Virus genome (UHGV): UHGV-0201380
From: a virus
Length of the DNA stretch: 43,652 nucleotides
Strand: one strand, 5' to 3'
The translations under genes and the position numbers were made by a program. How positions within the stretch are numbered: the stretch's first letter is position 1; every line of letters begins with the position of its first letter. The notes below the pieces were generated by a model. That model was not told where the DNA came from. It did no database searches and was given only the letters and a program-made list of their open reading frames with translations. Shown one piece after another: positions 9,405 to 43,506 of this stretch.

Positions 9405-9418
9405 ACGCCAGTTGCATT

Positions 9419-9448
9419 CACATAGCGCCCCGCAGGACGCTATAGGCT
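9419..9448 (-). promoter_or_regulatory. Conserved early-region hairpin element, copy 2
   Basis: 30-bp element, 27 of 30 identical to the copy at 10135..10164. Contains a 6-bp inverted repeat ATAGCG/CGCTAT whose stem positions covary with copy 1 (ATAGCA/TGCTAT). Lies 15-45 nt upstream of an early gene start. Confidence 0.4.
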
Positions 9449-10097: not shown

Positions 10098-10134
10098 AAT
10101 GCACCTCTTTGATTGGTTGTTTAGGTAATTACTT

Positions 10135-10164
10135 CACATAGCACCCCGTAGGATGCTATAGGCT
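10135..10164 (-). promoter_or_regulatory. Conserved early-region hairpin element, copy 1
   Basis: Same 30-bp element as 9419..9448, here with stem ATAGCA/TGCTAT. Sits about 40 nt upstream of the 191-aa early gene. Confidence 0.4.
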
Positions 10165-11383: not shown

Positions 11384-12205
11384 AACAATATCTCCTTACA
11401 TAGTGATTAGTAGCGTAACCATAGCGACGATATCCCGGAGGGATAGGAGCGGAGGTTACAAGATTCTAGGTAATGCTTCCCTCCCTACGGTCAGTCATAC
11501 AGGGCATTACTAGGGGATACTAGTGACTACTAGTGAGTAGTAGTAAGTAGTGTGTATATAGTGCCCTAAAACCCTCCTACTCCTGTAACATCATTTCATG
11601 ACAGCTTTCGAATGAAAGTAAGAGCAAGGGGATAGCAAAGAGATAGCGCCGGGATAGTGTTGGGTGAGGATGTGCGCCCTAGTGGGGAGCGCGCAGCGTA
11701 GCATATAATCGGCACAATGTAAAGCACTAGGGATAGCCAGTGGATAGCCTAGTGCATACTAGGGATAGCACCGTGACGCACTACAGCGCACTAGGCAGGC
11801 CCACTATGGCCCCACAATGCAGGCACTAGGCGGGCCCACTATGGACGCGCAAAATAAGCAAGGCAGAGCGCACCCCTACGGCCCACAGGGAGCGCACAGG
11901 GATAGCCCCTAGTGCCCCGTAGAGCGCACAGGAGCCACTCAGTGCCACGCACAGGCCAAGCCGTGGGGCAGCACTAGCGATAGCCCCAGCGCAGCGCAGG
12001 GAGCCACTGAGGCCCTCTGAGGCTTCCGCTATAGCCACGGTCTTAGCTGCCGTGGCGCTCCACACCTCAGAGAGCGCCCTAGGGCCGTCTAGACGTCTAG
12101 GCACCCACCCCACCCCTCCTTTTATGCGCTAGGCACCCCCTATGGGGGCAATTGGCGTCGTTGAGGGTGAGGGAGGCTCAAGGGCGAGTATAATAATTTT
12201 TGGTT
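11384..12205. repeat. Non-coding repeat-rich region, probable physical genome terminus or terminal-repeat neighbourhood
   Basis: About 820 bp with no ORF of 60 aa or more on the coding strand. Dense short direct repeats (GGGATAGC about 8 times, CACTAG/CTAGTG about 9 times), a 21-bp direct repeat CACTAGGC(A/G)GGCCCACTATGG twice about 39 bp apart, and tagt-type microrepeats at 11521-11560. Lies between the last late gene and the early region. Confidence 0.5.
11575..11591 (-). promoter_or_regulatory. Candidate phage-RNAP promoter-like motif, copy A
   Basis: Exact 17-mer TCCTACTCCTGTAACAT (minus strand ATGTTACAGGAGTAGGA), one of three identical copies in the window, here within the terminus region. 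Confidence 0.35.
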
Positions 12206-19656: not shown

Positions 19657-22600
19657 TTAATCGTCTCCGAAGTTATTGATGATAGCTCGCGTAGGTGCGA
19701 ATTCCTGGATTAACGGCACCTGCTTAGTGAAGGTCTTGATATCCATATTACCGGTAGCCAGGTCCTGCACAGCCCCAAGTAGTCCTGTGACGTAACCCAT
19801 AGATGCCAATGAGTGACGGGGAGAATCCCCCAGGAAGATATCCTGTAGTAAGGATACACCGCCAATGGCACTCATACCCATCACGGACTCACCGATGAGT
19901 TTCTGGGTGTCTACGTCCTTCCCATCCATACCGTGCTTAGCCATAGTAGCCAGTAGCATCAGCGGGAATTGATACGCCATAATATGGGCTACGCCAATCC
20001 ACCCAGCGTCGCTCAGCTCCCTACGCAGAATCTTGTTAGTGGCGGCCAGTGCGAAGCTCTGGTACCCTACAATGACTTTGCCGATAGGGTTGAACTGTGC
20101 AAAGTGTGAGGTCTCTCCAGTACGAACCTGCTGTACCAGGTAGTCCATCATACGCGTCCCTACAACCTCAACTTGCATTTGCAGGTCCGGCTGGAACATG
20201 GCGCCCGGGTTGGCTTTGTTGGCAGCGATGGCACGGTCAGCAACGTCGCGGGTAAGCCCGAAACGCTCCAGACGCTTAAACGCCGCAGCATCACCCTTGA
20301 ACATCTGGGTAAGCTCATCCGCCACAATGCCGGAGTTCAGGTTAACCTGCAGCCGGTGCACCATGCTCATACCGTTGACGTGACGCGCAGCCTGCCCAAC
20401 GTTCTGGGTTACATTGAACCAAGAGGCCTGACGGGTCAGGTCCAGGTTATCGTCGGCGTACGTATTCAACCAGCGGAAGCGCATCTCCTTCTGGATATTA
20501 CCTCGCAGTACAGTGTCTAGACGGGTAGCCATATCCGGAGTCTTGATAGCTACGGCACCTTCCTTGAACCAAGGCTGGTCACGCATACTACGCAGCACTC
20601 TAGCCATACCGAACTCCTTCATAGCCAGGGCAGTGTCAGTCAGCTGATACAGGCCGGAGTTCTTAAGCATGGTGGCGTTAGCCATGTTCCCGGCTGCACG
20701 CAGCAAATCCGGAAGCTGTCCGGCGTCAGCAGGCGCCCCACCCAGGATAAAGTCGATGGTGTCATTGACTGTCTTCTCCCACTTAGCGGAATCCGCCAGT
20801 GCGTGCTTAGACTCATCAATCATCTTAGCTAGCTGGCCCAGGTCCTGTACGCCTGCATAGGCCATGCCTACACGCCCAGACATACGGTTAGTGTACCCGT
20901 GCATAACCTTGGCTACATCAGTATCCATCAGGTCCTGCATGCGCATGCTCTTACCGTTCACCAGATACTCTTTGTCCATGTTGAACCGAGTACGCTGACG
21001 CAGGTTCCGCGCAGGGGATGTGCTACCGGATTCGCGTACGTTACCAGCCAGGAAACTCTGGATTGCAGATTCATCTACACCAGCGCTACGCATAGCCATA
21101 ACGACCTCGTCGTTACCCATGCCGTTAATCAGCTGCTTCCACATCGGGCCGGACTGCCCTGCACGGCCGTTGTAGATACCGTCAACCATCTCCTTTGCAA
21201 CACGCTGCACTACCTCTGACTCCATGCTCGGGTACACGTCCCGCAGGGCGGACCTGAACAGGGCGCGGTAGTCGTCCAGAGTGTTACCCTGCGCAATACC
21301 TTGGCGCATCTTGTCGTAGCTGTACTGACGCGGGAAGTAGTAATCGGATTTAACCAACGCACCATCATCCACTAGACCAGCATTGAGCATATGCTCGTGC
21401 CACTTGCCTGCCCAGCCAGAGCGGCGATAGGCGTCAACCAGTGGGGCAATCTCTGCATCCGGTACGGGAACAGCTCGGCCGTTTACATCAGCACTGTAGG
21501 CAGCATCCAGGTACTTGCTCAGGCGGTCTTCCAGTGCAGCCCGCTCAGCGCGGAACTTGCTCCGATGGAAGAAGCGCTCAGAGAAACCTACACCCTTATC
21601 CTTCAACGCGCCCAGGATAGCGTCTTCCACTACGCTAGCGCTGGCGTCCATCTCCAAAGTGAGGTTGCGCTTGAAGTCCACTACAGACGGGCGACGGCCG
21701 CCTACTGCGGACGCATCCGACACTAGCAGTTTAGCCAAGTCTTCATTGCCTTGAGCGATGTTATCGTACAGGGCAAACATAGTAGAGAGCTTCTTCTTAG
21801 CGCCATCCAGCATAGCTTGGGCACCCTTAGCCTCGTTTAGGGTAGTGCTGCCCGCCAGGTCCTGGAAGGCTTCACTACGGAAGCCCTGGGCTTGGTCTGC
21901 ATAATCCTTAGCTGTCCACTTAACGGCGTCCTCGTACGCATCCAAGACATCTTCCAAGGCAGAACCTTTGGCCTTGATGCCCAGGGCATTCATGATGTAC
22001 TCGCCCAGTTGGCGGAGCATGCTCTTACCGGTTGGGGATTTCGTCCGCGCCAGATGCTCAACCCACTCAGGGCTGTCACCTAAGCCTGCCAGCATCTCGT
22101 GCACATTACTAGCGTAATACCGCATACGCGGCGTCAAGGTGGAGTCCGCTGCAATAACAGCGCGCACTTCATCCAGGCGCTTAGCAATCTCTGGGTTACT
22201 GTCAACGGCGCGCGCAGTGGCGGCATGAATCAGTTCGTGCACGGCTACCCTGCTTGTGTCTGCATCCATAGCACGCAGTGCGTCCCCTGCTGTAGTCCAT
22301 GTGCTGCCATTAGCTCGCTTAGGTGCGCGTAGAGACACCTCTCCACGCTTAGCTAAATCTTGCTGTGCGTAAGTGTAGCGGCTGCGGTTTGCGGAGCCTG
22401 CTACCAGTTTAAAATCAATGTCATTTACAGCATCGCCCAGCGTGTCCAGAATAGCCTTCTGGCCTGCTGTTAAGTGTTCGGACTTCTTCAAGAACTGAAC
22501 TACGTGCTGTGCTTTCATGTTCACGGAGGCGGTATTGTTTCTAGATACTTGGATGCTTTCATCCAGTGTCTTAGTAAGGATTTCCTCTCCCTCTCCTACT

Positions 22601-23355
22601 CCTGTAACATTAGCGTCCCTCGCTGTACGAGTTGTAGGCGCTTCTGGGTCGAACATAGGCTCACGCCCAGTACGAGCCTTAGCAGCAGCTTTAGCAGCCC
22701 TAGACATATCCCAGAGCTGGTCCAACCCAGCTACGCCCGCTACCAGTGCAGTTACCGCAGCAGACTGGCCCAGTTGGTCCTGCGCATAGAATGCGGAGCC
22801 TACGTCAGCAGCGCGGATAGCAGTCCGTGCAGCTAAGCCTGCGCGGCCAGCAATACCAGCGGCAGACATCGGGGCCAGGATGAACGGAGAATCACCCACC
22901 AACATACCCGCGAACCCGGCTACCGTGTTGTCAGCCATTAAGCGGTCACGGTTGCGTTGCTCAAGCATCTGCTGCATGCGGTAGTTGTAATCCTCGACCG
23001 ATACAGAGTCGTGCAGGTACTCAATCTCTTCCTGATTCGGAGCATACAGCTTAGCCCTGGTATCGCTGCTCAGAGTCTGCTTGGCGTTAAAGTTCTGGTC
23101 CCGGTCAAATGCCGGGGCAGAGGCCTTACGGATAGCTGCGGCGATGATGCTGTTACCCATACCAGACGCAAAGCTCTCCCCGGCTGTAGTAGCTGGGGTC
23201 TTGGCCTGCGCCAGTAAGGAGGCACGCTCCAGTGCGTTTAAGCCGTTGTCTCCGGCATCGTTCCAATCTACGCGCTCAGGCGCAGGTTTAAGTGTTGCGC
23301 CCTTAGCAGAATCCTTTTCCTGTGGATTCGGTTCTTGGTTCAGAAACTGAGCCAT
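19657..23355 (-). CDS. Internal virion protein (T7 gp16-like ejection/core protein)
   Basis: 1232 aa; largest ORF, last of three consecutive internal virion protein genes between tail tubular B and the tail fibre. Confidence 0.75.
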   Translation of the reverse strand: MAQFLNQEPNPQEKDSAKGATLKPAPERVDWNDAGDNGLNALERASLLAQAKTPATTAGESFASGMGNSIIAAAIRKASAPAFDRDQNFNAKQTLSSDTRAKLYAPNQEEIEYLHDSVSVEDYNYRMQQMLEQRNRDRLMADNTVAGFAGMLVGDSPFILAPMSAAGIAGRAGLAARTAIRAADVGSAFYAQDQLGQSAAVTALVAGVAGLDQLWDMSRAAKAAAKARTGREPMFDPEAPTTRTARDANVTGVGEGEEILTKTLDESIQVSRNNTASVNMKAQHVVQFLKKSEHLTAGQKAILDTLGDAVNDIDFKLVAGSANRSRYTYAQQDLAKRGEVSLRAPKRANGSTWTTAGDALRAMDADTSRVAVHELIHAATARAVDSNPEIAKRLDEVRAVIAADSTLTPRMRYYASNVHEMLAGLGDSPEWVEHLARTKSPTGKSMLRQLGEYIMNALGIKAKGSALEDVLDAYEDAVKWTAKDYADQAQGFRSEAFQDLAGSTTLNEAKGAQAMLDGAKKKLSTMFALYDNIAQGNEDLAKLLVSDASAVGGRRPSVVDFKRNLTLEMDASASVVEDAILGALKDKGVGFSERFFHRSKFRAERAALEDRLSKYLDAAYSADVNGRAVPVPDAEIAPLVDAYRRSGWAGKWHEHMLNAGLVDDGALVKSDYYFPRQYSYDKMRQGIAQGNTLDDYRALFRSALRDVYPSMESEVVQRVAKEMVDGIYNGRAGQSGPMWKQLINGMGNDEVVMAMRSAGVDESAIQSFLAGNVRESGSTSPARNLRQRTRFNMDKEYLVNGKSMRMQDLMDTDVAKVMHGYTNRMSGRVGMAYAGVQDLGQLAKMIDESKHALADSAKWEKTVNDTIDFILGGAPADAGQLPDLLRAAGNMANATMLKNSGLYQLTDTALAMKEFGMARVLRSMRDQPWFKEGAVAIKTPDMATRLDTVLRGNIQKEMRFRWLNTYADDNLDLTRQASWFNVTQNVGQAARHVNGMSMVHRLQVNLNSGIVADELTQMFKGDAAAFKRLERFGLTRDVADRAIAANKANPGAMFQPDLQMQVEVVGTRMMDYLVQQVRTGETSHFAQFNPIGKVIVGYQSFALAATNKILRRELSDAGWIGVAHIMAYQFPLMLLATMAKHGMDGKDVDTQKLIGESVMGMSAIGGVSLLQDIFLGDSPRHSLASMGYVTGLLGAVQDLATGNMDIKTFTKQVPLIQEFAPTRAIINNFGDD
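22594..22610 (-). promoter_or_regulatory. Candidate phage-RNAP promoter-like motif, copy B (intragenic)
   Basis: Exact 17-mer TCCTACTCCTGTAACAT inside the gp16-like gene, about 760 nt from its start. Confidence 0.3.
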
Positions 23356-26107: not shown

Positions 26108-26695
26108 TTACCAGGTATGAACTGAGCTGTTACCCTTACTCCCCCATAAGTCATAGGAGGATGCCGTGTTCTGTGTAGCCGACGCACCGCTACCAGGGGA
26201 TGAGCCGCCAGAGTCAGAAGATGACGCAGCGTTACCGGCGTACTGCCCAACGGCAGATGCCCCAACACTTAGCAACGAGTTAAACATGTTATCGTACGGG
26301 TCCTCCATGTCCATGTTAGCCAGACCACTATCCACAGCCTTGTCCGTCATTAGCCGGAAGCCCTCTTCCTGGGTTGCCTGCTGGTCCCGTACGCTAGCCT
26401 CTTGTCGCCCTGCTACTGTGTTCACGGTGGCTACGGCGTCTTTAACAGAGGCCCCCATAGTGCCAGAGGCTGCTGCCTGCAGTACTACTTGGCTCTGCGC
26501 CTGCAGTTTCTGCTGCTGGATGTTAAACAGGGATACCTCAGTCCTGTCCCTGGACTGTGCACGCTGCAGCGCTATATCGTTTAACTGTTTGGCTGTCTGT
26601 TGAATCACAGCCTTGTTCCTGGCCTTGGACACTTCAATCTGAGCACTCTGCCCCAGAACGGCCTTAGCGGCCATGGCCGCAACCATCCACCACAT
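26108..26695 (-). CDS. Internal virion protein (T7 gp14-like)
   Basis: 195 aa, first ORF after tail tubular B. Called by synteny. Confidence 0.55.
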   Translation of the reverse strand: MWWMVAAMAAKAVLGQSAQIEVSKARNKAVIQQTAKQLNDIALQRAQSRDRTEVSLFNIQQQKLQAQSQVVLQAAASGTMGASVKDAVATVNTVAGRQEASVRDQQATQEEGFRLMTDKAVDSGLANMDMEDPYDNMFNSLLSVGASAVGQYAGNAASSSDSGGSSPGSGASATQNTASSYDLWGSKGNSSVHTW

Positions 26696-29627: not shown

Positions 29628-29672
29628 ATTTGTTCCTCTATTAAAGACCCCTTGGACCCTTAAGACAGGGAC

Positions 29673-29709
29673 AAAAAAAAAGCCCCTGGCACCCGAAGGC
29701 ACCAGGGGC
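29673..29709 (-). terminator. Intrinsic (rho-independent) terminator, T7 Tphi-like, minus-strand specific
   Basis: Minus-strand RNA forms GCCCCUGGUGCC-UUCG-GGUGCCAGGGGC: a 12-bp stem with two G-U wobbles and a UUCG tetraloop, followed by U9. On the plus strand the wobbles are C/A mismatches. Sits 6 nt after the stop of the 115-aa ORF. Confidence 0.8.
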
Positions 29710-32192: not shown

Positions 32193-33788
32193 TTAACTTG
32201 GTAATAAGCCCAGCTGCTTACCTGCTACTGTCGGGTCCGCTGCTGTCAAGCCCTGGAGTTGGTCCTGTGCTGCACCTGCGGATACATCGGCAGACGCATC
32301 TTGAACCTGTTGCTTCTGCTGCAGCTGCTCTTCGGTGTACATGAACGGCTCGCTGACGATACCATAGGCGTCGAAGTACCAGTCTACACACGCATCCTTG
32401 TTGAAGCGCGGAGTAATCTGCTCAAGCACCGGGATAGCCAGCTGCATGGACTGTGCCGCCTCTAACAGCTTGTCCGCTGCTGCGGCCTTAGCCAGCGCAG
32501 AGGTACCTACTGTAACGTTGATGCTCACCACGCCTTCGCTGAGGTACAACTTAAAGCGAGGGTACACCAGTGCAGTGTACAGGTACGCCAGCTTACGCAG
32601 CCAGGTGTCGCTCAGGATACTGAACCCACCACCCATAGCGGCTTCCGCCTCTTTGGCGTTCTGGCGAATCTCATAAGCCGTGACACGCTCACCCTGCCGG
32701 GAGTTGCCGGTGTACATAAACGCACGAGACAGTTTCTGTTCGAGCATCTGGATGTTGCTGGCAATCCACTGAATCTTCTGGGCAGAGCCGCCCTCGTAAG
32801 CAGTGACAGGAGACTTAGTGTTTCCGTTGGAACCACCGCCGCCCACCTGCACGGCCTCCCCGGTCTCCGCCGTAGAGAACTCGTCCACATCCAGGCCAGA
32901 ACTAGAATCTACTAGTGGAATCAGCCGAGAGGCTTCGACCTCGTAGTTAGTCAGTGCTTCCGACAGTACCGATAATCGGGCAAAGTCCCCAGCGTAGTCC
33001 TCTACCAAGCCGCGCCCGTAGTGCTCGCCACTAACAAGGTTCCACACCAGCACGTTGTAGGGGAGCTCCAGCTCCGGATAGGTGCTGCTGTCCCCGATAC
33101 GGTGTCCATCGGCTTCTTGATACACCTCGTAGCTTACTACCTCTACGCCTTCCTCTGTCCGCTTAACTTTGCGACAAGCGGCAGTGTAGATATCAACGTC
33201 GCCGTATGGGTCTTTGTCACGGTAGAAGGTGTTCTGGAAATCCTCTGGCAGGTCCTGGACGCTTGTGCGCTCTCTGATAATGAGTCGCAGGACGTTCCCG
33301 CTGCCATCCCTTCGAACGGTAAAGTTACGAACTGAGTAGACGATGGATTTACCTGTCCGCTCATCAATATACTCCAACGCGTTACCTGTAACCAGCAGCA
33401 GCTTCACAGCTTGCAACTTCGCAGCATAACCGTCTTTCTCAAATACTTTCTGTGACGCTGTGTTCTCAACCTCAGCCAGCTTAGATTCTGCCGTAGCTGC
33501 ACTGCCCAGCGAACTAATGAACTCGTCCAGGTCCGAACTCTTGGAGAACCGGAAGAAGCTAGTGCCCTGAGGGAACAGTGCCCCTACAATCTTAGTGGCT
33601 GCAGTGTTGACCAGCTGCGCGCCGGTGCTCTGGTAGTCACGCTCTAGCGGTCTGCGTCTACCGTCCAGGGAATCGTCCCGGGTAAAGATAGTGCTGAGCG
33701 TCCACTGCGCGAACTTCTCGGAGGCATCCAATACACCTGCGTCCTGGTCCTTCTTAAAGAGTTCTGCTAATGTTGCTTTTTGTTCCAA
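32193..33788 (-). CDS. Portal (head-tail connector) protein (T7 gp8-like)
   Basis: 531 aa. Motif GERVTAYEIRQNAKEAEAAMGGGFSILS resembles T7 gp8 GERVTAEEIRYVASELEDTLGGVYSILS. Confidence 0.9.
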   Translation of the reverse strand: MEQKATLAELFKKDQDAGVLDASEKFAQWTLSTIFTRDDSLDGRRRPLERDYQSTGAQLVNTAATKIVGALFPQGTSFFRFSKSSDLDEFISSLGSAATAESKLAEVENTASQKVFEKDGYAAKLQAVKLLLVTGNALEYIDERTGKSIVYSVRNFTVRRDGSGNVLRLIIRERTSVQDLPEDFQNTFYRDKDPYGDVDIYTAACRKVKRTEEGVEVVSYEVYQEADGHRIGDSSTYPELELPYNVLVWNLVSGEHYGRGLVEDYAGDFARLSVLSEALTNYEVEASRLIPLVDSSSGLDVDEFSTAETGEAVQVGGGGSNGNTKSPVTAYEGGSAQKIQWIASNIQMLEQKLSRAFMYTGNSRQGERVTAYEIRQNAKEAEAAMGGGFSILSDTWLRKLAYLYTALVYPRFKLYLSEGVVSINVTVGTSALAKAAAADKLLEAAQSMQLAIPVLEQITPRFNKDACVDWYFDAYGIVSEPFMYTEEQLQQKQQVQDASADVSAGAAQDQLQGLTAADPTVAGKQLGLLPS

Positions 33789-33797
33789 GCTACCCCC

Positions 33798-34064
33798 TTA
33801 CAGGCCCAGAGGATTGCTCTGCCCTGCTTGTCGCCGTTTCTTCTGCTCAGACGTAATTGCATCTGCAGATTCAGAGGCAGCCCCTGCGGGGTCAATCTCA
33901 GCAATGTTATCTGCGGCGCTATTAGCCTCTAAGGCAGCCTGTTGTTTAGCTGCACTGGCCTGCTGCTCTGCCAAGCGCTGCTGCGCCTCTAATCCTGCGT
34001 TGTCAGTAAGGCCGAGCATGTCCGTGGCCTTACCTAACAGCTTACCTAAATTACCACCACTCAT
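33798..34064 (-). CDS. Small hypothetical protein upstream of portal (T7 gp6.7/gp7.3-like by position and composition)
   Basis: 88 aa, Ala/Gln-rich with basic C-terminus (KKRRQAGQ). Confidence 0.4.
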   Translation of the reverse strand: MSGGNLGKLLGKATDMLGLTDNAGLEAQQRLAEQQASAAKQQAALEANSAADNIAEIDPAGAASESADAITSEQKKRRQAGQSNPLGL

Positions 34065-34501
34065 TCTGACCTCACTAAATGATAAGTTGTCTTGTACGTG
34101 TTATCCGATGTACTCCGGCTAATGGCTATACGCCCAGCGCGCATGCATTTGGCTATTGCGCGCAGGCCTTGCATAATCACAGACACTGCCGCGCCGTTGT
34201 CCGGTTTCAATACGAAGAAGTCTGTATACAGCACAGGCTCTACGTAATGACAGTCCTCTACAGCCTCTGGGTAGTAGCTGACAGCACCGACTAAGTCGCC
34301 TTGGGAGTCATAGACCCCTAGTATATACTGTTTACCCAGTATACTTCCCAGCACCCTCCAGTAGTGCTGCTCTGGAGCCAGGCCCCGACTAATGCCGTGG
34401 CCCAGTTCATGCAGTTGCTTCACTGCGTCCGTAATGTCGTCAGACTTATACAGAACTCTGAGAGTGTAGTCGGAAGTTTTACTAGTGTGTTTTAACTTCA
34501 T
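34061..34501 (-). CDS. Hypothetical protein, first gene downstream of RNAP
   Basis: 146-aa ORF. Its ATG immediately follows promoter-like motif copy C, whose GGAGTAGGA end doubles as a Shine-Dalgarno-like sequence. Confidence 0.5.
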   Translation of the reverse strand: MKLKHTSKTSDYTLRVLYKSDDITDAVKQLHELGHGISRGLAPEQHYWRVLGSILGKQYILGVYDSQGDLVGAVSYYPEAVEDCHYVEPVLYTDFFVLKPDNGAAVSVIMQGLRAIAKCMRAGRIAISRSTSDNTYKTTYHLVRSE

Positions 34502-34518
34502 TCCTACTCCTGTAACAT
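34502..34518 (-). promoter_or_regulatory. Candidate phage-RNAP promoter-like motif, copy C
   Basis: Exact 17-mer TCCTACTCCTGTAACAT (minus TTAATGTTACAGGAGTAGGA), immediately after the RNAP stop and before the structural module. Loosely reminiscent of T7-group promoters in length and the TAAT-start/purine-rich-end layout. Confidence 0.4.
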
Positions 34519-34526
34519 TAAATTTT

Positions 34527-36995
34527 TTAGCAGAAGAAGAACGGGGATTCTAGCACTTGCCGGATGTCCAAAGTGCCCACTTCCGGCATGTCCAGGTCCG
34601 TCAAGTCTGCCCCGGCTGCTGCTGCTGCGCGAGTAATGTCGCCAAGCAGGTCATTCTCTTCATACAGGCGCACAAACTGCTCACGGATGTGCCTATGCAT
34701 AGCGTCAACGTCAGCTGCGTGAGTAGCCAGCGAGTCGTGAATAGGCACAATATCCAGACCCTCCGCAGCGCAGAGCACCATCATCAAGTGCGTACTGTCC
34801 AGGCTATGCACAAAGTTCGGGGCAATCCCGGAGGCTGCCTTGCGCTTGTTGCAAGTTTTGAAGTCCCGGTTGTGTACCAGTACCGCTGATAGGTTCATGC
34901 AGTCAATACGTACGCGCACTTCTTCACGCTGCGTGTAGCGGTTCATTACGAGCCCACCCAGCGGCGTATACCACTGCAGATGCTGGCTTGCCGGTACACG
35001 CCTAGCGAGGTTCTGCAAGTACCCCATAACTGCGGCTGCGGCTGGGTTTGCCTCCTCGATAGCAGTGCGCATACGCGGAGCCAGGTAGCATGACAAGTTC
35101 CACAGACTGTTAGTCTCAGTACCCTCGTACCCCTCAGCGCAAGCGCCTTCGAAGATGTAGTCGCTGCAGCTGCGCACAGTGGCGCTGTAGAAGTAGGTCA
35201 TACTAGGGCGCTTGGTCATGCTGCGGGTGATTTCGTTCTCTCTCCAGTACGTGCTCTGGATAACGAAATCCTCCTTGTCCAGGTCCAGTATCACCTTCTC
35301 GTCCGTACGGCGCTTCACGTCCATGTACAGGTCCGCTTTCTTATCATTACCCTCCCAGTACAGGTTCGTCAAGCGTCCGCCCACAGGGTCTCTCAGGAGC
35401 GCTGAGAGATGCTGTCCACCTGAGTTTGTAGCGTCCATAGCAACTGGGATTCGGCTAATATGCTCTTCTGGGCATCCAGAACGAACCGCATTAACCAAGT
35501 CGATAGCGGCGGCCAGCAGGCACCAGGGGCTATCCGCAGAGGAAAAAGCAGGGGCATCAAGAGGAGAATCCGCGAGCCTCTCAATCTCTGCATAGTTCGC
35601 ATCAACCCAAGCTGCACGGTCTTCGAATAGGGTTTTGTCATAACCAAAGCAAGTGGCGACGTGCACTTTAAGCCAGAAAAGTCCGCGCTCTCCCAGAGGC
35701 TTGCCACGTCCGAATTCAAGAAGGGCTTTCTGCAAATCAGAACCTTGGGGATGCAGCGAGGACTTGAAGTACAGGCGGTAGCGCCAGTCCACACAAGTCG
35801 GGAAGTACAGGGCTTTCTCATCTTTGAATTCCTCCGCCATTTCCAGCGTGGTCAACAGGCTGCGTAGTTGTGACACACGCTTACGGTCTGCGCTGTACCA
35901 TAGGGACATGCGCGTCTTCCACTCACCGAAGCGGTCCAGTTCTTCTTCGGTGTAGTTCTCTTTTGGTACTCCATCCAAGTACCACTCCGGTTTAGGCTCT
36001 GGTACTGAGCGGGGCATGCCCACCCCAATACCCAGGGCCCGTGCTTCTTGCACCAGTTCCAGTATGCGCTTATTAATACGGTATGGGGTTTCCTGCGCCT
36101 TATTAAGCGCCTTTTTGATGCCGTCCGCGGACTTGAATGCTTCTGCTACTTCACGGAGTCGCGCGCGGTCGATGTGCGAGTTGTGATAGGTCCCGCGATT
36201 GTCGATGGGGGTAAGGTACCCGCCATCCCACATAGTGGTGTGCTGTACCGGTGGCACCAGCATAGGCGGCTTCATGGTTACGGTATCAGCGGACTCTACC
36301 AGTTTCTGGAAGGCCTCCATAACATCGTCAGCCGGGTAGAGCATGCTCAGGTTCCCACTACAGTTCTTCCATTGGAACAGGCCAGTCTCAAACACCGCGG
36401 CACATAGCAGCCGACCTACTGAGATATTCTGGGAGTTGGTCCATGGCTCGTGCCCATAGTGCACGTTCTCAGCACTGGCCCGCAGCGTACGCAGGATGTG
36501 CGTGGGAGACTTGGTCTTACGCTCCGTAAGGTACTCGTACACACGGTCCATGTACGCCGGAGCCACGTTGCGTAACTGCAGGGCCAGCAGTTCCGATTGT
36601 ACGTTCCGGCCCAGCGCGGACATTACCGCCTGTGCAGTCTGGCGGCGGCTAGCGGACTCGCCAGGAGCTACGCTAAATGCCTCAAACATTGTGCATAGGC
36701 TCAGGGTGGTCAGGACATCCAAGGGGACTAAGCGCAGGAACCGGCGGTACTTACCGCCAATGCCCGGGGCTTTTACATTTCGCATCTCATCGATAGCGGC
36801 GGCGGCCACCTCATATGCCGAGGTGAGCATACGCTGCGTCATCGGCAGGTTCATAATCCCACCGTTCTGCAATGCGTCCGTAATCAGCTTACGTGCCCGC
36901 TCGATTCCGCGAATCTTATAGGTCTCTTCAAGCTCCAGCTGGCGTTTCACCAGTGCTTCCTCTGGTACTACAACCGTATTCAGGGCGCTAATCAT
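34527..36995 (-). CDS. Single-subunit DNA-directed RNA polymerase (T7 RNAP family), located next to the structural module
   Basis: 822 aa. Motif A-like PVAMDATNSGGQH, motif B-like RSMTKRPSMTYFYSAT, motif C-like PIHDSLATHAAD. AAGGAGA Shine-Dalgarno. Placement directly upstream of portal is the phiKMV-like hallmark. Confidence 0.95.
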   Translation of the reverse strand: MISALNTVVVPEEALVKRQLELEETYKIRGIERARKLITDALQNGGIMNLPMTQRMLTSAYEVAAAAIDEMRNVKAPGIGGKYRRFLRLVPLDVLTTLSLCTMFEAFSVAPGESASRRQTAQAVMSALGRNVQSELLALQLRNVAPAYMDRVYEYLTERKTKSPTHILRTLRASAENVHYGHEPWTNSQNISVGRLLCAAVFETGLFQWKNCSGNLSMLYPADDVMEAFQKLVESADTVTMKPPMLVPPVQHTTMWDGGYLTPIDNRGTYHNSHIDRARLREVAEAFKSADGIKKALNKAQETPYRINKRILELVQEARALGIGVGMPRSVPEPKPEWYLDGVPKENYTEEELDRFGEWKTRMSLWYSADRKRVSQLRSLLTTLEMAEEFKDEKALYFPTCVDWRYRLYFKSSLHPQGSDLQKALLEFGRGKPLGERGLFWLKVHVATCFGYDKTLFEDRAAWVDANYAEIERLADSPLDAPAFSSADSPWCLLAAAIDLVNAVRSGCPEEHISRIPVAMDATNSGGQHLSALLRDPVGGRLTNLYWEGNDKKADLYMDVKRRTDEKVILDLDKEDFVIQSTYWRENEITRSMTKRPSMTYFYSATVRSCSDYIFEGACAEGYEGTETNSLWNLSCYLAPRMRTAIEEANPAAAAVMGYLQNLARRVPASQHLQWYTPLGGLVMNRYTQREEVRVRIDCMNLSAVLVHNRDFKTCNKRKAASGIAPNFVHSLDSTHLMMVLCAAEGLDIVPIHDSLATHAADVDAMHRHIREQFVRLYEENDLLGDITRAAAAAGADLTDLDMPEVGTLDIRQVLESPFFFC

Positions 36996-42918: not shown

Positions 42919-43345
42919 TCCAGCTCCTGTTACTTATTACGTCACTAATTACATGTACACCTACACCGTACTTATTAGCAAAGTGTTGCCGCATACCTTT
43001 CTTGTATGGGATATAGTTATCCCTGATATCCTGCACAGCATCCCAAGTTAACTGCGCTTTTGGGTTCCTATCCCCACGCACATCTGGGTTCCTTCCGCGC
43101 TCTGCACGGTCCCGCATATTATCCATATGCGTTCCCAATACTAAGTGCTTAGGGTTAATGCACCTGGGGTTATCGCAGGTATGTCTAACAGACAGGCCAG
43201 CCAGCGCCCTTATATCCAGCCCGTTATGCTCAGCATACACCACCCGATGCAGCAGCTCCAATCGCCTGGTCGGCTTATACCATGCCCGGCGGTATCCGTT
43301 CTTGTTAAGGCATTTGTTATACCCGTGGTCAATACACATCGACAT
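42911..43345 (-). CDS. HNH homing endonuclease
   Basis: 144 aa with HRVVYAEHNG ... HTCDNPRCINPKHLVLGTHMDNM. Overlaps the phosphoesterase start by 8 nt. Confidence 0.85.
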   Translation of the reverse strand: MSMCIDHGYNKCLNKNGYRRAWYKPTRRLELLHRVVYAEHNGLDIRALAGLSVRHTCDNPRCINPKHLVLGTHMDNMRDRAERGRNPDVRGDRNPKAQLTWDAVQDIRDNYIPYKKGMRQHFANKYGVGVHVISDVISNRSWNA

Positions 43346-43506
43346 TCGGTATCCTCTTGTGTTGTTCCTACTCGTATCACATTAATTCTCTGTGAATCAC
43401 AGAATCAAGCTAGAGTCAACAAATAATTTTATTTAATTATTTAGTTGACCCCAGTGTATTTCCATGCTACCCTAACCCCCTACACCACCCAAGGGTCCAC
43501 CTATCA

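Follow-up and report, generated by a model that had tools for sequence, protein, structure and literature searches.

The motif copy that lies inside the gp16-like internal virion protein gene of this phage is, with a probability of roughly 88%, a working late promoter for the T7-type single-subunit RNA polymerase that the phage itself encodes. The original prediction, that the motif would drive transcription of the distal part of the gp16-like gene, the tail fibre and the terminase genes, is supported at the level of sequence by the identity of the site to the strong promoter variant S1 of phage KP34, by a polymerase 97.4% identical to that of KP34 (protein) with a matching specificity loop, and by the co-variation of promoter base -7 with this loop. 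A copy of the promoter that the phage polymerase uses has already been reported for KP34 at the homologous position, and the sequence match identifies the site studied here, copy B, as its counterpart.

The window, i.e. the whole stretch of 43,652 nucleotides that was analysed, is the complete genome, circularly permuted, of a Klebsiella phage from the KP34-like group (Drulisvirus). All motif copies and all long open reading frames of the window are on the minus strand. According to the list of open reading frames, the gp16-like gene (19657..23355, minus strand) encodes 1232 amino acids. Its homologue in KP34 is gene 48, annotated as 'internal virion protein with endolysin domain'. A Pfam scan of the 1232-residue protein gave no match, so there are no domain boundaries to draw.

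The 17-mer ATGTTACAGGAGTAGGA was located where it had been noted, at 22594-22610 on the minus strand, inside the 1232-residue reading frame and in the coding orientation. The full promoter extends two bases further 5' than this span. It consists of TAATGTTACAGGAGTA at 22597..22612 (minus strand), corresponding to positions -16 to -1, and matches the KP34 strong promoter S1 at 16 of 16 bases. Within the gp16-like gene it overlaps codons 248-253 (gcT AAT GTT ACA GGA GTA). By homology with the KP34 start mapped by 5'-RACE at nt 22213, the predicted transcription start is the first G of GGAGAGGGAGAGG, at 22596 on the minus strand. This base is nucleotide 760 of the gene, in agreement with the distance of about 760 nt given earlier. 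Position -7 falls on 22603 (minus strand); here it is an A, in the wobble position of a Thr codon (ACA), and in relatives it is either A or C.

The 17-mer has three exact copies in the window, at 11575-11591, 22594-22610 and 34502-34518, all on the minus strand, and a fourth copy (D, TAATGTGATACGAGTA) with three mismatches at 43366-43382, also on the minus strand. In shuffled sequence the mean number of matches is 0.09, and none of 100 shuffles contained the four seen in the window. On the plus strand no copy with up to four mismatches was found. Copy A, TGATGTTACAGGAGTA (variant S2, 11578..11593, minus strand), is non-coding, lies near the left end of the genome and equals KP34 nt 475-490. 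Copy C, TAATGTTACAGGAGTA at 34505..34520 (minus strand), lies directly after the polymerase gene and equals KP34 nt 22197-22212; its predicted start is 34504, so that the leader ahead of the ATG at 34501 is 3 nt long. In each of the three exact copies, GGA directly follows the 16-mer. A variant of the motif is also named, TGAAGT(T/A)ACCGGAGTA.

Outside the window, an IMG/VR scan for ATGTTACMGGAGTAGG gave, among the matches listed, many contigs without similarity to the flanks of the window, and these were left out. They were treated as coding or chance occurrences: there is no polymerase homologue nearby, and in several of them the 16-mers are spaced in multiples of three. One example among the matches listed, contig L051, has 16-mer repeats spaced 144 and 285 nt.

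According to the accessible part of Lu et al. 2019 (PMC6834552), the strong promoter of the KP34 RNA polymerase is 5'-T(A/G)ATGTTACAGGAGTA-3', of which all 16 nt are required for full activity. Variant S1, identical to TAATGTTACAGGAGTA of the window, directs transcription by the KP34 polymerase in vitro, and variant S2 has equal activity. Two templates were assayed in this part of the paper, the 16-mer by itself and the copy that follows the polymerase gene. Only the second was the template for the in vitro 5'-RACE, which placed the start at nt 22213, the G immediately 3' of GGAGTA in the copy behind the polymerase gene. A copy at nt 33721-33736 is also listed; in the accessible text its coordinates are given without a discussion of the intragenic location and without a test in the native context.

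The copy at 33721-33736 lies 743 nt into KP34 gene 48, and copy B has the identical offset in the window. As this copy was listed by Lu et al. 2019, the intragenic promoter was already known. KP34 and the window are also alike in the 16-mer, in the following bases GGAGAGGGAGAGG, in the polymerase loop and in where the copies lie, namely behind the polymerase gene, within gp16 and close to the left end. There is no material difference between them; the window is another isolate, with about 93% nucleotide identity in the gp16-like gene segment. In a literature search we found no transcript start mapped at the intragenic copy in any phage, and no in vivo start-site map for a Drulisvirus.

The polymerase gene of the window (34527..36995, minus strand) encodes 822 amino acids and was identified by a phmmer match to T7 RNA polymerase (E = 2e-68). 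Both the window and the KP34 polymerases carry the loop sequence NLSAVLVHN. Residues 703-706 (SAVL, 34878..34889, minus strand) belong to the specificity loop and align to T7 residues 758-761. In the T7 polymerase the loop residues R746, N748, R756 and Q758 read promoter bases (PMC11880802). The relatives have one of two polymerase types, SAVL or TIMR (with the variants TILR and TIVR), and residues 703-706 are the only positions among the 822 that are perfectly diagnostic of the type. The polymerases of phiBO1E and SU503 have the TIMR loop. The SAVL loop also appears in Table 5 of PMC4411677. The dimorphism was listed by Eriksson et al. 2015, but it was paired with a sequence that has since proved to be no promoter, and our literature search found no paper that ties it to the true KP34-type promoter.

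We compared loop type and promoter base in 49 contigs of IMG/VR relatives (about 50 related genomes). In the 23 contigs with a SAVL loop, position -7 is A at copies C and B, and in the 26 contigs with a TIMR or TILR loop it is C at both copies. The -7 base of copy B is therefore concordant with the loop type in 49 of 49 contigs, with no discordant case, and the polymerase gene is 12 kb away from copy B. Copy A also has a C at -7 in three C-type genomes. An association scan over 863 common SNPs in 3971 aligned nucleotides around copy B gave r2 = 1.00 with the loop type at 22603 only. The runner-up was 22615 with an r2 of 0.81, and all remaining SNPs were below 0.5.

Linkage cannot explain this match: a tree built from the gp16 sequence that flanks the site requires 7-9 changes of the -7 state, and within the polymerase gene the mean r2 with the type is down to 0.1-0.2 by 150-300 nt from the loop codons. 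Not all motif-like sites obey the rule, as the near copy D retains an A at -7 in C-type genomes. Judging from these alignments, Drulisvirus probably comprises two natural matched polymerase/promoter classes, SAVL with -7 A and TIMR (TILR, TIVR) with -7 C, in which all copies of the strong promoter would be kept in step by selection despite pervasive recombination.

The surroundings of copy B suggest what it may be used for. A strong intrinsic terminator, with a 12-bp GC-rich stem followed by nine T, lies after the capsid gene at 29672..29709 (minus strand), between copies C and B and upstream of the latter; it is identical to the KP34 terminator at 26623-26660. Downstream of copy B about 10 kb of late genes follow with no further copy of the motif. 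Most likely the phage polymerase binds TAATGTTACAGGAGTA at 22612-22597 (minus strand), with its specificity loop reading the region around -7, and we infer that during infection it would initiate at the G at 22596. Transcripts from copy C would run into the strong terminator, and copy B would then most likely restore or boost transcription of the tail fibre, the small and large terminase, the lysis cassette and the tailspike. The promoter would have had to lie inside a gene because these tightly packed genes leave hardly any intergenic space; the stretch it occupies encodes a peptide, NVTGVG, that lacks conservation in another genus. A transcript from copy B would have about 2.9 kb of gp16 coding sequence ahead of the first complete gene. 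A search for a shorter gp16 product, taken to 400 nt from the predicted start at 22596, found no in-frame start with a Shine-Dalgarno sequence ahead of it.

The motif is present in all 42 distinct gp16 segments; five of its seven wobble bases are invariant, and 74% of the third positions of the gene are polymorphic. This conservation is only moderately unusual on its own, ranking at roughly the lowest 5% (of 914 seven-codon windows, 53 are equally or more conserved), and because the wobble test is no more informative than that when used as the sole test, the association scan took its place. The 16-mer could in principle be kept solely for the peptide ANVTGVG and have no function as DNA. The Drulisvirus relatives examined all have the peptide NVTGVGE, and one common synonymous variant, ACA/ACC, does exist within the motif. 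However, this variant is the -7 base that tracks the polymerase type, and it is the only SNP of the 863 in perfect association with a loop encoded 12 kb away. The residue before the Asn varies (Ala, Thr or Val, encoded by GCT, ACT or GTT), yet the T at -16 stays constant, the Koutsourovirus homologue does not share the peptide, and chance would not be expected to produce an exact 19-nt identity to two intergenic copies. As the -7 base of copy B matches the polymerase type in every contig and the perfect association is found at 22603 alone, we consider a coding accident very unlikely. The original prediction had taken a conserved peptide with synonymous variation in the DNA as the sign of selection on the protein only. 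Such variation was found, but it amounts to the single common variant ACA/ACC, and since this base tracks the polymerase type the criterion would have pointed the wrong way.

A true polymerase-binding promoter might also have a main role other than mRNA supply, such as replication priming, transcription-driven genome entry or concatemer processing; replication, genome-entry or concatemer roles have been proposed for some T7 promoters. The co-variation speaks for binding and selection but is silent on which downstream process is selected, and copy A lies near the genome end, like the T7 phi-OL promoter. Copy B, however, lies centrally in the late region and well away from the terminal repeats, 3' of the strong terminator and 5' of the late genes that have no other motif copy, and the DNA downstream of it is ordinary coding sequence that is not AT-rich; such a main role is unlikely here. 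Recombination offers another account, in which the 16-mer would mainly be a short homology where divergent gp16 modules recombine. The region is highly recombinant, and the ungapped nucleotide match between AltoGao-like genomes and the window stops right after the motif. But that break is an indel in a still-homologous protein and not a module swap, and a mosaic junction leaves the tracking of the polymerase loop by the -7 base unexplained, which makes this account highly improbable. The motif had also been proposed as a recognition or cleavage site of an HNH homing endonuclease or as a packaging-related site, and neither proposal found support. The motif is repeated and sequence-specific, and there are several HNH genes in this genome family. 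However, the annotated HNH or homing-endonuclease genes number four in KP34, two in phiBO1E, two in KpV48 and one in ZH5, in differing places, whereas the motif copies are constant at three or four places. Motif variation follows the polymerase loop, and the sequence has been demonstrated to act as a promoter in vitro according to the available part of the KP34 study (PMC6834552); an endonuclease site is therefore extremely improbable. As for packaging, copy B lies a long way from either end of the genome: in KP34 (43809 nt) the homologous copy starts at 33721, whereas the terminal repeats occupy 1-216 and 43594-43809.

The finding of a late promoter in the gp16-like gene adds nothing new by itself, as its sequence, its polymerase and its place in the genome have been in print for KP34 since 2019. 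A later computational catalogue of promoters of this type covers 135 genomes (PMC11880802). The perfect match between loop and -7 base, which holds over distances of up to 12 kb although the genomes recombine, is population-genetic evidence that copy B works during infection. For annotation, copy B would define a late transcription unit that begins within a gene, and it will be missed by gene callers and promoter predictors that consider intergenic regions only. If there are indeed two classes, a cassette of four residues and one base would make up a near-minimal orthogonal polymerase/promoter pair, and the fitness need for the intragenic copy would be shown by evolution and not by experiment. 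Such natural, possibly orthogonal polymerase/promoter variants are of potential use in synthetic biology.

A similar layout is found in the phiKMV-like Pseudomonas phage LUZ19, in which in vivo start-site mapping placed two phage promoters directly after the polymerase gene and one, P009, in the structural region (Putzeys et al. 2024, PMC10914365). The agreement of this layout with KP34 was remarked by the authors (PMC10914365). LUZ19 and the window are alike in being phiKMV-like, with few phage promoters of which one is in the structural region. The LUZ19 promoter sequence, GgtTATGTCACacACA, is unrelated to the motif of the window. By sequence match, a copy of the core of the LUZ19 motif lies inside gp37, the gp16-like gene of that phage, and possibly corresponds to P009. 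It is located about 3.4 kb into a 4.0-kb gene, whereas the window copy is 0.74 kb into a 3.7-kb gene, and LUZ19 has an antisense motif copy while the window has none.

In the one Koutsourovirus genome analysed, SDFMU_Pec, no KP34-type motif was found. A different 13-mer, a candidate motif in this single genome, is repeated at the left end and after the polymerase gene, with no copy in gp16. An intragenic promoter at the gp16 position thus does not appear to be universal in the subfamily.

A general parallel is T7, which also has a single-subunit polymerase and a promoter of 16-23 nt that is read by the specificity loop. In T7, too, a terminator after the capsid gene is followed by further promoters that feed the tail and packaging genes. 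The late (class III) promoters of T7 lie downstream of the T-phi terminator, and some T7 promoters lie within coding sequence. T7 differs in having about 17 promoters, compared with three or four in the KP34-like family, and its consensus is unrelated to the KP34 type except for the TAAT at its beginning and the G as start base. Among T7-like polymerases, e.g. T7 versus T3, a few loop residues change together with one or several promoter bases at -7 to -11, and the published analysis of polymerase/promoter co-variation is restricted to such polymerases (PMC11880802). The likeness to Drulisvirus lies in this co-variation of loop and promoter, here between a four-residue cassette and position -7. 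The difference is that in Drulisvirus both types coexist in one genus, in heavily recombining genomes.

The motif copy at 22594-22610 (copy B) had been described as lying about 760 nt into the gene of a gp16-like internal virion protein, in the coding orientation, and this is confirmed. On the minus strand the span reads ATGTTACAGGAGTAGGA, inside an ORF of 1232 aa at 19657..23355(-), and all long ORFs of the window are on that strand. The exact 17-mer is also found at 11575-11591 (copy A, near the left end of the genome) and at 34502-34518 (copy C, behind the polymerase gene), and a version with three mismatches at 43366-43382 (copy D); all four are on the minus strand. The mean in shuffled sequence was 0.09 matches, and four matches were reached in 0 of 100 shuffles. 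When the copies are aligned, the common block gains two bases at the 5' end, giving TAATGTTACAGGAGTA followed by GGA in copies B (22612-22594(-)) and C (34520-34502(-)), and TGATGTTACAGGAGTA followed by GGA in copy A (11593-11575(-)). Copy B begins 743 nt into its gene and overlaps codons 248-254, gcT AAT GTT ACA GGA GTA GGA (A-N-V-T-G-V-G); the predicted start base is nt 760 of the gene.

A 601-nt query around copy B matched 262 phage records at 80-96% identity, nearly all from Klebsiella phages of the genus Drulisvirus, where the gene is annotated as "internal virion protein with endolysin domain", "DNA ejectosome component" or "internal core protein". For KP34, Lu et al. 2019 (PMC6834552) report that the purified single-subunit RNA polymerase starts in vitro at nt 22213, as mapped by 5'-RACE. 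The 16-mer 5'-TAATGTTACAGGAGTA-3' lies just upstream of this position and is present at 22197-22212 and 33721-33736, with TGATGTTACAGGAGTA at nt 475-490; both 16-mers were equally strong in vitro, and the 14-mer common to them was much weaker. Gene 48 of the KP34 record (32978..36676) is homologous to the gp16-like ORF, and nt 33721 lies 743 nt into it, the same offset as for copy B. The polymerase of the window, 34527..36995(-), 822 aa, matches T7 RNA polymerase with E = 2e-68 and is 97.4% identical to that of KP34. The order and spacing of the four copies are those of KP34, provided that the window is a circularly permuted whole genome, in which case it begins 268 nt upstream of copy D. The promoter at copy B is already known, because the 16-mer, the matching polymerase and the homologous position in gene 48 are published, and KP34-like promoters were predicted genome by genome in a 2025 survey (467 in 135 genomes; PMC11880802).

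Codon and nucleotide conservation were compared in 42 distinct gp16 segments from IMG/VR, picked by protein similarity and not by the motif. The motif peptide is conserved in 42/42. Five of its seven codons are invariant, AAT has one AAC singleton, and the threonine codon is split between ACA and ACC (20:22). In the gene, about 74-79% of the comparable third positions are polymorphic, and 53 of the 914 windows of seven codons equal or exceed the motif in conservation. Taken alone, the wobble conservation is only suggestive of a constraint on the DNA. The codon before the asparagine is Ala, Thr or Val (GCT, ACT, GTT) and its last base, promoter position -16, is always T; in the Koutsourovirus homologue, the peptide at the place of copy B differs. 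The T kept under a varying codon and the non-conserved Koutsourovirus peptide point to selection on DNA.

What is added to the known promoter is its co-variation with the polymerase, which supports the function of the intragenic copy. The variable base of ACA/ACC is promoter position -7, and the copy behind the polymerase gene shows the same A/C choice among the matches listed in an IMG/VR scan. When 25 polymerases were sorted by the -7 base at that copy, the only perfectly diagnostic residues among the 822 were four consecutive ones, 703-706: polymerases with A have SAVL there, and those with C have TIMR (TILR in one case); a TIVR form was found in the larger locus set. They align to T7 758-761 in the specificity loop, a correspondence uncertain by about three positions because a three-residue gap adjoins the aligned stretch; in T7, the loop residues R746, N748, R756 and Q758 read promoter bases (PMC11880802). 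In a second locus set, picked by polymerase similarity and tabulated by contig, SAVL occurs with A at -7 of both copy C and copy B in 23 contigs, TIMR or TILR with C at both in 26, and none of the 49 is discordant. Where readable, in three C-type genomes (C at -7), the left-end copy is TGAAGTAACCGGAGTA, with C at -7 too. The copy behind the polymerase gene is altered also at -15 and -13 (TGAAGTTACC) in a subset of the C-type genomes, and copy B is unaltered there; -15 and -13 of copy B fall on bases 1 and 3 of the Asn codon, where such changes would give a different protein sequence. The co-variation suggests two natural specificity classes in the genus.

Both loop versions were listed by Eriksson et al. 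2015 (PMC4411677), KP34 and K2044 versus F19, SU503 and SU552A, and paired with a 32-nt repeat, their 'putative phage promoter', later found inactive with the KP34 polymerase by Lu et al. 2019 (PMC6834552). The window has two copies of this element, at 9417-9448 and 10133-10164 (AGCCTATAGCGTCCTGCGGGGCGCTATGTGAA on the minus strand); it is conserved genus-wide and partly self-complementary.

After masking of the motif, a neighbour-joining tree built from the gp16 flanks requires 7-9 changes of the -7 state, and one C-type relative (L040) is placed amid nearly identical A-type sequences. We scanned 3971 aligned positions around copy B in 39 genomes, with 863 common SNPs, for association with the loop type. 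Position 22603, the -7 base, is the sole site with r2 = 1.00; position 22615, 12 nt upstream, has 0.81, and all remaining SNPs are below 0.5. In the polymerase gene, the mean r2 drops to 0.1-0.2 within 150-300 nt of the loop codons, so these genomes recombine freely. A perfect match over 12 kb must therefore be kept by selection for a polymerase-compatible promoter and not by simple shared ancestry. The case for the use of copy B during infection is strong but indirect. The conserved peptide and the synonymous ACA/ACC variation, named in the original prediction as signs of selection on the protein only, are both present, but protein-only selection is very unlikely since the variable base tracks the polymerase loop. 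That copy B is a promoter, as proposed there, is supported by its identity with the KP34 16-mer active in vitro, the matching polymerase and the co-variation of -7 base and loop.

The motif had alternatively been proposed as a recognition site for an HNH endonuclease. KP34 has four annotated HNH or homing-endonuclease genes, phiBO1E and KpV48 have two each, and ZH5 has one. Their places differ, whereas the motif copies stay put, making a target site unlikely. The packaging-related site suggested at the same time is also unlikely, given the distance of copy B from the terminal repeats. That the promoter acts in concatemer processing, replication or genome entry has a low probability, and nothing points to it. 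Most economically, copy B would be a booster promoter for the distal late genes. After the capsid gene there is a strong terminator at 29709-29672(-), with a 12-bp GC-rich stem and then nine T, identical to the one annotated in KP34. Copy C, on the upstream side of this terminator, supplies the portal, scaffold and capsid genes. Copy B is 7 kb downstream of the terminator, and the late genes that come after it (what remains of gp16, tail fibre, terminase subunits, lysis cassette and tailspike) span about 10 kb with no further motif copy and no terminator of comparable strength. Its location within a gene would follow from the end-to-end packing of the genes in this region. The transcript would start GGAGAGGGAGAGG and include about 2.9 kb of gp16 sequence, with no convincing internal in-frame start found within 400 nt of the predicted start.

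In the first ~20 codons of the gp16-like gene (~23290-23355(-)), third positions are invariant in 39 related genomes, against 74% polymorphic gene-wide, which suggests a nucleotide-level constraint that could come, for instance, from translation initiation, from RNA structure or from an overlap with the upstream region's end. The gene is about 564 nt longer in ZH5 (L231, 31196-35458), KpV48 (L167, 33080-37342) and the relative L087, which keep the promoter and the sequence downstream of it. Upstream of the promoter, the proteins of ZH5 and L087 are divergent from that of the window until about 15 codons before copy B, which would place the extra segment there.

Copy C (34499-34520(-)) abuts the ATG of the next gene, and transcripts starting there would have a leader of just 3 nt (GGA-AUG). 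On read-through transcripts its AGGAG would act as a Shine-Dalgarno sequence, and copy C appears to double as promoter and ribosome-binding site. Five AltoGao-like contigs (L070, L093, L116, L134, L160) have an extra ~350-nt ORF after the stop codon of the polymerase gene and ahead of the promoter copy, which is still directly before the next conserved gene. Within the 3' end of the polymerase gene, 34555-34574(-) is homologous to the KP34 'weak promoter' ACTTTGGACATCCGTCAAGT and differs from it at one base (T to G). Two adjacent 30-nt direct repeats, 87% identical (11788-11817 and 11823-11852), lie in a GC-rich non-coding region by the inferred genome terminus, about 200 nt upstream of copy A. 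Copy D, 43369-43384(-), reads TAATGTGATACGAGTA followed by GGAACAACA, departs from the promoter at -10, -8 and -6, and is identical in KP34 (12983), phiBO1E, KpV48 and ZH5. The intergenic block around it (~43340-43446) is highly conserved, follows the region of the DNA polymerase gene, and contains an AT-rich stretch and a TTGACT hexamer. C-type genomes, too, have A at -7 of copy D, which is thus not tied to the polymerase loop. Copy D may represent a weak or middle promoter, a relic, or a piece of a host-type promoter region.

Unrelated environmental viral contigs with GATGTTACAGGAGTAGGAACTGCTA were among the matches listed in the IMG/VR scan. One, L051 (IMGVR_UViG_3300020435_000035), has it at 2432, 2576 and 2861. 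Its occurrences there are 144 and 285 nt apart, distances divisible by three, and no polymerase homologue is near it in this and related contigs; it is probably a repeated coding motif sharing the 16-mer by chance.

The copy in the gp16 gene is absent from the one Koutsourovirus genome examined, Enterobacter phage SDFMU_Pec (L230). There, the 13-mer AGAGGTTGCACGT occurs only at 741 (left end) and 22838 (just after the polymerase gene), the places of copies A and C in Drulisvirus, which makes it a candidate promoter for that polymerase. In LUZ19, phage-specific promoters were reported twice after the polymerase gene and once in the structural region (P009), and the agreement with KP34 was noted (Putzeys et al., PMC10914365). 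We find LUZ19's own promoter-motif core just after the polymerase gene, once in gp27 and once in gp37. The copy in gp37, the gp16-like gene of 4.0 kb, is a candidate for P009 and is about 3.4 kb in, whereas copy B is 743 nt in. Placing a promoter within a gene, upstream of the tail fibre genes, may therefore be a solution that recurs among phiKMV-like phages.
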